Virus record (IMG/VR): IMGVR_UViG_3300031519_000002
DNA: 64,000 nucleotides
Reading direction: 5' to 3' (one strand)
Origin: a virus
Shown: piece after piece, positions 11,099 through 12,240 of the stretch
Numbering within the stretch: the stretch's first letter is position 1
Layout: each line of letters begins with the position of its first letter
The notes under the pieces: model-generated
Seen by the model: only the letters and a program-made list of their open reading frames with translations
Database searches by the model: none
Told to the model about the DNA's origin: nothing
Program-made: the position numbers and the translations under genes

Positions 11099-12025
11099 AT
11101 GGTAGATAATAACTTCCCACAAAACATGGGACAACCGGGTATTCCGATGGGACAACCCGTACAACCAGCTGGAAATCCGCTGGCAAAACACTTACGACAA
11201 CCTAAGATTTACATCAAATTGCCAAGTAACGGTGAGTACTGGCCACAAGCGGCATTGAAAAAAGTAGAAAATGGTGAGTATCCAGTATATGCGATGACAG
11301 CCAAAGATGAAATTACAATGAAGACTCCAGATGCGTTATTAAATGGGCAAGCAACTGTTGATGTGATTCAAAGTTGTTTTCCTAATGTCATTGATGCTTG
11401 GCAGTGTCCATCGATTGACCTTGATGCAATTTTAGTTGCAATTAGAATGGCAAGTTACGGCGAAGCAATTGATATGTCAGCAATGGTTCCACAAACAGAA
11501 ATTACTAAGGACTTTCAACTCGATCTACAGACAATCCTTGACAATTTAACTAACACAGTATACGAAGATACATTTTCAATTCCTGGATTCAGAGTTCAAA
11601 TTGTACCTATTACATATAGACATGCAACTCAACAAGCTATCAAGGCTTTTGAAGAACAGCGTATCTTTGCTACAGTTAACGATGATGGGCTTACTGAAGA
11701 GGTAAAATTAGAACGTTTTTCAAAGAGTTTCAGTAAACTAACTGATATTAATATCAATGTAGTTGTTAATAGCGTAGTTGCCATTCAGCCAGAAGGTGAT
11801 GAGGTTGCAGTAACTAACAAAAATCATCTAAGAGAATTTATTGAAGGTGCAGAAGCTGGTGTGTTTAATGCTATACAAGCACATATTGCAAAGCAAAAAG
11901 ATAATTTCCAGCAAAAGCCTATTAAGATGGAAGCTACTGCTGAGGAGATGGAAGCAGGTGCTCCGGCAACTTATGATCTTCCGATTACATTTGATCAATC
12001 AAATTTTTTCGGCTCCGGATCTTAA
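11099..12025 (+). CDS. gp26: baseplate hub assembly protein (gp26-like)
   Basis: RQPKIYIKLPS, VYAMTAKDE, DLDAILVAIRMASYGE and a C-terminal SNFF; AGGAG RBS. Confidence 0.8.
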   Translation: MVDNNFPQNMGQPGIPMGQPVQPAGNPLAKHLRQPKIYIKLPSNGEYWPQAALKKVENGEYPVYAMTAKDEITMKTPDALLNGQATVDVIQSCFPNVIDAWQCPSIDLDAILVAIRMASYGEAIDMSAMVPQTEITKDFQLDLQTILDNLTNTVYEDTFSIPGFRVQIVPITYRHATQQAIKAFEEQRIFATVNDDGLTEEVKLERFSKSFSKLTDININVVVNSVVAIQPEGDEVAVTNKNHLREFIEGAEAGVFNAIQAHIAKQKDNFQQKPIKMEATAEEMEAGAPATYDLPITFDQSNFFGSGS

Positions 12026-12064
12026 CATGGCCCCTCGATAAAATCCTATCCGAGGTTAAGGTCC
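12001..12064 (+). other. candidate programmed -1 ribosomal frameshift signal
   Basis: In-frame overlapping slippery heptamers A AAT TTT (12001-07) and T TTT TTC (12004-10), a 6-nt spacer, then a 10-bp stem GGATCTTAAC/GTTAAGGTCC (12017-26/12055-64) with inner CTCG/CGAG. Confidence 0.75.
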
Positions 12065-12240
12065 TAGAAGGTGATGTTAAAGAAATAAAATCAGGCTTAT
12101 TGAAAATAACCTGGTGGATGCGTGGAGGTATTACTCTAGCAGAAGCATATTATCTGACAGTCGAAGACAGAGAATTAATCAACGATATCATTACAGAGAA
12201 TTTAGAAACTGCTAAAAAGATTAATCAACCTTTTTGGTAA
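12004..12240 (+). CDS. gp51: gp51-like baseplate hub assembly domain in the -1 frame, not in the ORF track
   Basis: Frame open from 11995 to TAA 12238-40: FFRLRILTWPLDKILSEVKVLEGDVKEIKSGLLKITWWMRGGITLAEAYYLTVEDRELINDIITENLETAKKINQPFW. The WxMRGG...ER-type pattern and position after gp26 fit gp51. No ATG/GTG before 12118. Confidence 0.7.
   Translation, partial: FFRLRILTWPLDKILSEVKVLEGDVKEIKSGLLKITWWMRGGITLAEAYYLTVEDRELINDIITENLETAKKINQPFW

Follow-up and report, generated by a model that had tools for sequence, protein, structure and literature searches.

We report here an analysis of a baseplate hub locus in a 64,000-nucleotide (nt) stretch of viral DNA (IMG/VR record IMGVR_UViG_3300031519_000002; the whole stretch is hereafter called the window), a morphogenesis block from an uncultured marine jumbo myophage of the T4 superfamily. 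At this locus a gp26-like baseplate hub gene very probably yields two protein forms by a programmed -1 ribosomal frameshift close to its 3' end. The gene (11099-12025, plus strand) is preceded by a Shine-Dalgarno sequence, AGGAG, read from the sequence at 11086-11090 on the same strand, 8 nt 5' of the ATG, and its 0-frame product of 308 amino acids (aa), the short form, matches the T4_baseplate family PF12322 (40.1 bits against a curated cut-off of 24.5, E 4.2e-10) and the baseplate hub family phrog_150 (E 4.2e-12). Homologues of this protein number 6317; its nearest cultured relatives, at ~30% identity, belong to Sinorhizobium phage Phosso and Agrobacterium phage Atu_ph07, followed by those of the RaK2, 121Q/PBECO4, CBB and PA5oct group, and the contigs of its uncultured relatives reach 262 kilobases (kb), with an estimated completeness of 73%. 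A nucleotide search of the locus against a phage collection gave no match.

The 0-frame of the gene ends TCA AAT TTT TTC GGC TCC GGA TCT TAA, with its stop at 12023-12025. An earlier note on this DNA, made from the sequence alone, had recognised two overlapping heptamers here, both in the X_XXY_YYZ phase of a -1 slippery site. T_TTT_TTC (12004-12010, plus strand; 0-frame codons AAT TTT TTC) is invariant in relatives, whereas A_AAT_TTT (12001-12007), though present in the window, is not conserved, being absent from relatives that read AGT AAT or GGC AAT; we therefore reject it as a functional slip site and regard T_TTT_TTC as the sole relevant heptamer. The relatives in question are 64 distinct sequences drawn from 96 loci fetched from IMG/VR, with protein identities of 35-69%, and TTTTTTC stands in phase in every one of them. 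It is likewise present in 10 of the 11 cultured phages checked, a set of jumbo phages, cyanophages and KVP40; the carriers are Atu_ph07, Phosso, PBECO4, RaK2, PA5oct, CBB, the cyanophages P-SSM2, Syn9 and S-PM2, and vibriophage KVP40, and the eleventh phage, Xoo-sp13, has TTTTTTT. The survey of gp26 3' ends proposed in the earlier note thus finds a run of the form TTTTTT(C/T) in all 64 IMG/VR relatives and all 11 cultured phages.

This conservation operates on nucleotides and not on residues, as the base on the 5' side of the run is always T whatever amino acid is encoded there (AAT, CGT, CAT, AGT, TCT, GAT and GCT, for Asn, Arg, His, Ser, Asp and Ala). A codon-usage control across the distinct relatives is decisive in this respect: synonymous sites are frozen at the slip site alone, where AAT is used in 63/63 cases, TTT in 64/64 and TTC in 64/64, whereas at all other conserved two-fold sites both codons are used and the other Phe columns hold TTT in 41-50 sequences against TTC in 12-23. 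Past the heptamer the 0-frame tail varies from 1 to 11 codons (G*, GSGS*, E*, DLSFSS*, EQSF* and RES* are all found), the stop following one codon later in 50 of the 64 relatives and four codons later in the remaining 14, and the -1 reading remains FFR..LL across relatives whose 0-frame tails differ.

The -1 frame is open from 11995 to 12240, as had been claimed, the last stop before it lying at 11992-11994 and the run amounting to 81 codons; the part that would be read after a slip (12010-12240, plus strand) comprises 76 codons and a TAA. Such a run is beyond chance, since the -1 frame within the gp26 open reading frame (ORF) holds 37 stops in 309 codons and the longest of 1592 open -1 runs in 11 other genes of the window is 40 codons, with none reaching 78. 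Measured from the heptamer, the -1 ORF is 78 codons long in 58 of 59 complete relatives and 59-81 codons long in the cultured phages. The peptide predicted from this frame opens with FFRxRIL(T/S)W and runs on to ...W(W/Y)MRG...N(L/M)E...PF(W/F), with F1, F2, R3 and L7 among its invariant residues. Entropies at the three codon positions are 0.94/0.56/1.38 bits over the whole -1 frame and 0.84/0.36/1.14 bits over codons 3-10, a region that in most sequences lies 5' of any start; this third-position peak in variability indicates that translation of the -1 frame begins at the slip site. When 48 extensions were built into a profile and searched against 1.84 billion representative proteins, 412 relatives were recovered, most of them short ORFs of 40-98 aa whose lengths vary because gene callers pick different starts.

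Downstream of the heptamer, beyond a spacer of 6 nt (12011-12016, plus strand; from sequence and fold), inside the 5-9 nt sought for such a structure, lies a putative frameshift-stimulating hairpin (12017-12064, plus strand). The earlier note had placed a stem at this distance, and we find an outer stem, 12017-12025 paired with 12056-12064, together with an inner stem, 12033-12037 paired with 12051-12055. Covariation was counted over 49 distinct sequences (alignment columns 14-22/53-61 for the outer helix and 30-34/48-52 for the inner). In both helices together 78.7% of cells are paired and 11 of 14 pairs vary on both sides; in the outer helix 83% are paired and 6 of 9 pairs vary on both sides, with changes such as G-C to A-U, C-G and U-A. 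None of 500 shuffles matched the observed values on any of five measures, and all slid controls were far lower. The more distant clades have lost the 3' arm, yet most have another hairpin 6-9 nt past the run (P-SSM2, KVP40, PA5oct, CBB and Phosso), of unrelated sequence. Frameshift stimulators typically keep their position while their sequence changes. An Rfam scan of 11900-12300 gave no match, and a promoter and terminator scan found nothing relevant at the locus.

The two products had been predicted at 308 and about 380 aa, and computation returns exactly 308 and 380 aa, the latter with the junction ...DQSNFFRLRILTW... in a predicted transframe long form (11099-12237, plus strand; 11099-12010 in frame 0, then 12010-12237 in frame -1). 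The same protein plan exists in nature as a single reading frame. About 20 clusters of natural proteins of 319-351 aa carry the extension in frame at the extreme C-terminus, after the PF12322 body, with a junction that reads ...LD.S..FR.(K/R)IL... and contains no T run. Against a profile of these natural long forms, the two frames of the window score 2.9e-50 and 1.3e-24 singly, and the conceptual 380-aa product aligns as one unbroken domain (256.6 bits, positions 4-336 of the 336 in the hidden Markov model, HMM) with no gap at the junction. The model of one natural long form, P0132, is well defined (mean predicted local distance difference test score, pLDDT, 90.6; predicted template modelling score, pTM, 0.84) and folds the extension into helices at 251-260, 264-293, 298-302 and 306-325; its matches in BFVD are baseplate hub proteins and hub assembly chaperones, with E down to 3e-17. 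An AlphaFold2 model of the window's short form has a pLDDT of 77 and leaves the last ten residues, 299-308, disordered, which fits a linker at the junction. The contig of P0132 (GCA_015689235.1) also carries a T4-type portal gene of 1015 aa with an intein (PF14890) within the portal domain. A further candidate for a natural fusion, P0113 (383 aa), was rejected, its last ~100 residues being an exact repeat that reflects an assembly duplication of the gp26 C-terminus.

Natural long forms share four invariant cysteines, C89, C92, C236 and C239, in two zinc-ribbon-like pairs, and T4 gp26 and gp51 also have Cys pairs. The window protein contains just two Cys, both elsewhere in the sequence, and at the CxxC columns of the natural long forms it carries other residues; it stays within the PF12322 family despite this, because the motif lies outside the Pfam definition. 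Both Cys pairs have been lost in the window's gp26 clade.

In the two contigs with long forms that we examined, L115 and L116, PF12322 genes stand in tandem, one short (287 or 294 aa) and one long, and the short gene is a closer relative of the window's gp26 than the long gene is. L115, like the 60.7-kb contig that encodes P0132, has a portal gene, an 829-aa gene and hub genes, as in the window; L116 is cut short upstream. The C-terminal domain of the tandem long forms matches the profile of window extensions (E ~1e-22). There, however, two genes without recoding take the place of the single PF12322 gene with a slip site seen in the window. The slip run of the short gene in L115 is broken (AAT TTT ATG); the short gene in L116 (411-1295, plus strand) keeps T_TTT_TTC, but its -1 frame stops after one codon, so that the run looks like a slip-site relic left after duplication. 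That two products are made by one slipping gene in some genomes and by two genes in others argues that both forms are needed.

In the mechanism that we propose, most ribosomes would follow frame 0 to the stop at 12023 and release the 308-aa short form. A fraction, holding two Phe-tRNAs on TTT-TTC, would slip back by one nucleotide and re-pair to TTT-TTT, probably during a pause at the hairpin 6 nt downstream; their next codon would then be CGG (Arg), with translation proceeding in the -1 frame as far as 12240. The long form would then consist of the whole gp26 body and a helical C-terminal domain of ~76 residues. At the level of comparison among relatives, our data show a slip signal, a -1 frame that bears the marks of translation, collinearity of the predicted product with natural fusions, and an apparent equivalence to two-gene layouts; we infer that the event is ribosomal and that its efficiency is low. 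By analogy with T4 gp26 and gp51, both forms would act in the initiation of the hub and tail tube, the long form being needed in smaller amounts. A rare frameshift product would fit a factor of this kind, T4 gp51 being essential yet not in the particle.

Several observations weigh against this mechanism. Taken alone the hairpin of the window (minimum free energy -16.4 kcal/mol) is no more stable than shuffled sequences (z = -0.31; -0.76 in a second test), so that support for it comes from covariation, and as both of its arms are also protein-coding, the covariation depends in part on protein constraint. No Shine-Dalgarno-like stimulator lies 5' of the slip site. An ATG is found 3-6 codons past the run in 14 of 59 relatives and in Atu_ph07, Phosso, S-PM2, P-SSM2 and KVP40, and where it is present coupled re-initiation at this codon could take place. 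A run of six T could also permit slippage by RNA polymerase, with an identical protein as the result. Finally, a separate long-form gene is possible elsewhere in the genome, beyond the window; the window itself holds one PF12322 gene only, as does each of five relatives' contigs (146-262 kb).

Slippage at the level of transcription would operate through the addition of one U on the T6 run in some transcripts. The strict conservation of the run, extended to seven T in Xoo-sp13, would suit this explanation, and the collinearity with natural long forms does not discriminate against it, because the 380-aa protein predicted is the same. The runs at known bacterial transcriptional slippage sites, however, are of ~8-9 nucleotides or more, against which a run of six is short. 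Moreover, TTT TTT would be synonymous in frame 0 and is used in none of the 64 relatives, though this argument is weakened in that the same C opens the invariant Arg codon of the -1 frame. The covarying hairpin 6 nt 3' of the run, with hairpins at similar spacing in distant relatives, looks like a stimulator of the ribosomal and not of the polymerase type, and we judge transcriptional slippage to be improbable.

A second alternative, in which the -1 ORF encodes a small protein of its own that arises through termination-reinitiation or a non-canonical start and acts beside gp26 without fusion to it, strikes us as distinctly improbable. It accords with the annotation of the ORF as a separate gene in S-PM2, KVP40, PBECO4, CBB, Xoo-sp13 and Phosso, and with an ATG that overlaps or soon follows the gp26 stop in several annotated phages. 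In the window, however, the first 35 codons of the open -1 frame are free of starts, as had been noted; the earliest ATG, GTG or TTG is the TTG at 12100, which lies 32 codons beyond the heptamer, and no ATG occurs until 12118; neither of these candidates has a Shine-Dalgarno motif, and Shine-Dalgarno-like motifs are found ahead of 19 of the 21 gene starts in the window. The -1 ORF of PA5oct has no start codon at all, and in other relatives the first possible start is scattered from codon 3 to codon 50. These scattered starts, together with the invariant heptamer, contradict a picture in which homologues share an independent gp51 start and lack a conserved slip site. A separate protein would, furthermore, leave unexplained the invariant in-phase T run and the frozen third base of the codon before it, the -1 residues FFRxRIL are conserved 5' of any start and 5' of the 0-frame stop, and natural homologues are fused at exactly the same point.

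A last alternative, an unexpressed -1 frame that is the decaying remnant of a fused gene or a chance ORF, has nothing specific in its favour beyond the window extension's want of a Pfam or PHROG match, and is effectively refuted by the 78-codon length held in 58/59 relatives down to 35% identity, the coding-type substitution pattern and the 412 database relatives, to which may be added that no -1 run of at least 78 codons occurs in the 11 other window genes and that the stop of the ORF abuts that of the convergent gene at 12241 with no spacer.

The earlier note had further described the extension as gp51-like, and had contrasted the single gene predicted here with T4, where genes 26 and 51 are separate. 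The contrast is correct. T4 gene 26 has no slip site, its end reading GAG TTC TTT GAG TTA CTA TAA with gene 25 next, and gene 51 stands apart and divergent. T4 gp26 (208 aa) and gp51 (249 aa) belong to the same family as the window's gp26 (phrog_150, PF12322), the former matching the phrog_150 profile at positions 14-235 and the latter at 13-280. T4-type gp51 consists of PF12322 followed by PF28602, that is, a gp26-like body with a C-terminal domain, the same layout as we predict for the long form of the window, and the small 'gp51' of cyanophages consists of PF28602 alone; phrog_634 matches both S-PM2 gp51 (1.9e-27) and T4 gp51 (1.2e-23). T4 thus has two divergently transcribed genes and no slippery run where the window has one gene with T_TTT_TTC, and the T4 pair looks like a two-gene version of the same device.

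The likeness of the extension to gp51 accordingly holds for position and architecture, and it does not extend to sequence. The window extension has no Pfam or PHROG match, phrog_634 included, in searches for which the Pfam copy lacked PF28602, and BLASTP against T4 gp51 and gp26 found nothing significant. An hhalign comparison of window-clade extensions with the C-termini of cyanophage and T4 gp51 paired ITLAEAYYLTVEDRELI with YSLAEIENMMPWERAVY in the expected register, at an E value of 0.089. An HMM of the extensions against those C-termini was non-significant, as was an HMM of the gp51 C-terminus against jumbo-phage extensions, and hhalign from the natural long-form profile did not establish a relation of the extension to the gp51 C-terminus. 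The window thus differs from T4 in having a body without the two Cys pairs and an extension not detectably similar to the gp51 C-terminus.

Cyanophage and marine vibriophage gp51 lack the first ~200 residues (Sullivan et al. 2010, PMC3037559), and the KVP40 record likewise notes a gp51 without them. In these phages, as in the window, T_TTT_TTC is followed by a -1 ORF beginning FFR; there one codon separates the heptamer from the 0-frame stop. Their extension is 59-67 codons long and matches PF28602 and phrog_634, whereas that of the window is 78 codons long and matches neither, and their ORF is annotated as an independent gp51 with its own ATG, whereas the window has no early ATG. In our reading, which we base on the shared heptamer, the shared frame and the FFR start, the small gp51 ORFs of cyanophages and KVP40 would be the -1 extension of gp26.

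Both T4 proteins are listed as hub assembly chaperones, neither of them an established component of the virion, and gp51 is essential although it is missing from the particle (Leiman et al. 2010, PMC3004832, Table 2). Full-text literature searches found no published report of a slip in gp26, and the records that we inspected all either list two separate genes or carry no annotation for the ORF. In long-tailed phages, programmed -1 frameshifting within tail-assembly genes is textbook knowledge. Our comparisons show a conserved gp26 slip signal in T4's wider kin, namely marine and soil jumbo myophages, cyanomyophages and KVP40-like vibriophages. If the frameshift is real, the annotation of many genomes would be corrected, the small 'gp51' and many 'hypothetical' ORFs becoming the 3' part of a transframe protein, and the roles of gp26 and gp51 in hub assembly would gain a testable handle. 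A protein family unrelated to the known tail chaperones would then have the same expression logic, and a natural series of slip, two genes and fused gene would be available for studying how recoding and duplication replace each other.

Xu, Hendrix and Duda are said to have described, in 2004, a -1 frameshift in tail assembly chaperone genes (lambda gpG/gpGT) that is conserved in long-tailed phages, and Christie and colleagues reportedly found one in 2002 in the E/E+E' tail chaperone of phage P2, at the heptamer TTTTTTG. P2 resembles the window in its contractile tail, in a slip on six T and in an extension of similar size, but differs in its protein family and in the placing of the pair between the tube and tape-measure genes. 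Atkins et al. (2016, PMC5009743) describe G-T frameshifting as a conserved trait of long-tailed phages, 'except T4'. Lambda G/GT and the window have in common a tail-assembly gene with a -1 slip, predicted in the window, close to its 3' end, from which a short and a C-terminally extended form would arise with one start, a signal conserved though the proteins diverge, and a gene that adjoins a long tape-measure-like gene. They differ in family, that of lambda being TAC (tail assembly chaperone) and that of the window the unrelated PF12322; in the size of the body, ~140 aa in lambda against 300 aa; and in gene order, which in lambda is tube, G/GT and tape measure on one strand, whereas the tape-measure-like gene of the window lies next to the hub gene but diverges from it. 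The likeness to lambda, as an analogy, is one of logic and neighbourhood and not of homology.

The neighbour in question (8741-11020, minus strand; 759 aa) is a possible tape measure, or gp29 analogue, on composition and language-model features only. The earlier note called it tape-measure-like, with which its Gly/Ala-rich and hydrophobic segments accord, as does an Atlas feature search, a lead only, in which it falls with tape-measure clusters at 0.93 with few shared features; the gene is, however, divergent and not downstream as in lambda. No usable match was returned by BLASTP against T4 gp29 and KVP40.0326, by tblastn against the phage collection or by PHROGs. A long divergent gene also adjoins the gp26-like gene in Phosso, RaK2, PA5oct, CBB and PBECO4, the likeness being positional, and that of RaK2 is annotated as tape-measure-protein (TMP)-like. 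In KVP40 the order is tube-like gene, gp26, gp51, a 656-aa protein and gp3, which suggestively resembles the canonical order. The 656-aa protein, KVP40.0326 (L034, 1643-3613, minus strand), and S-PM2p209 (L033, 5357-8860, plus strand; 1167 aa) both directly follow gp26-gp51; S-PM2p209 matches tape-measure and lytic-domain PHROGs, and the two may be unrecognised equivalents of gp29.

Among the window proteins, searches of Pfam and PHROGs found no tail assembly chaperone family. The structural comparison with tail assembly chaperones proposed in the earlier note gave no informative solved fold for the natural long-form model: Foldseek against the PDB returned nothing at E <= 0.001, and a wide VIA-align search returned only generic helical hairpins (Z <= 8.3) and no tail chaperone. 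The note had gone on to suggest that, in the T4 superfamily, gp26 and its frameshift form correspond to the G/GT chaperones; this is a tentative proposal by analogy, which we would sooner doubt than assert. Under it the abundant short form would coat or hold a gp29-like tape measure during hub assembly, and the helical domain of the rare long form would recruit the hub or tube initiator and then leave. Were it true, all long-tailed phages would set stoichiometry in tail assembly by a frameshift, with T4 as a derived case in which the slip was replaced by gene duplication (26 and 51); this would account for a gp51 that is essential and yet missing from the finished particle.

The remaining genes of the window accord with a morphogenesis block. 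A T4-type portal (6989-8716, PF07230) lies on the minus strand together with a head protease and the major head protein, and elsewhere there are gp46/47-like genes, a gp55-like late sigma factor, gp5-like and gp6-like baseplate genes and an ORF of 5007 aa. The convergent gene beyond the hub locus (12241-13086, minus strand) encodes 281 aa with no family match, and its stop adjoins that of the -1 ORF, a TAA at 12238-12240, with zero intergenic bases between the two stops (12238-12243). A SegE-type GIY-YIG homing endonuclease gene (13725-14243, minus strand; PF19835, E 3.5e-32) lies between the hub locus and the gp46/gp47-like genes. Directly 3' of the gp5-like hub-lysozyme gene (22251-24977) is a gene (24977-25918, plus strand) for a 313-aa protein with a PAAR-like region (phrog_281) at its N-terminus and a peptidase/endolysin-like domain (phrog_894) at its C-terminus. 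The 5007-aa ORF (29967-44990, plus strand) stands directly 3' of the gp6-like baseplate wedge gene, in a baseplate and tail-fibre block.

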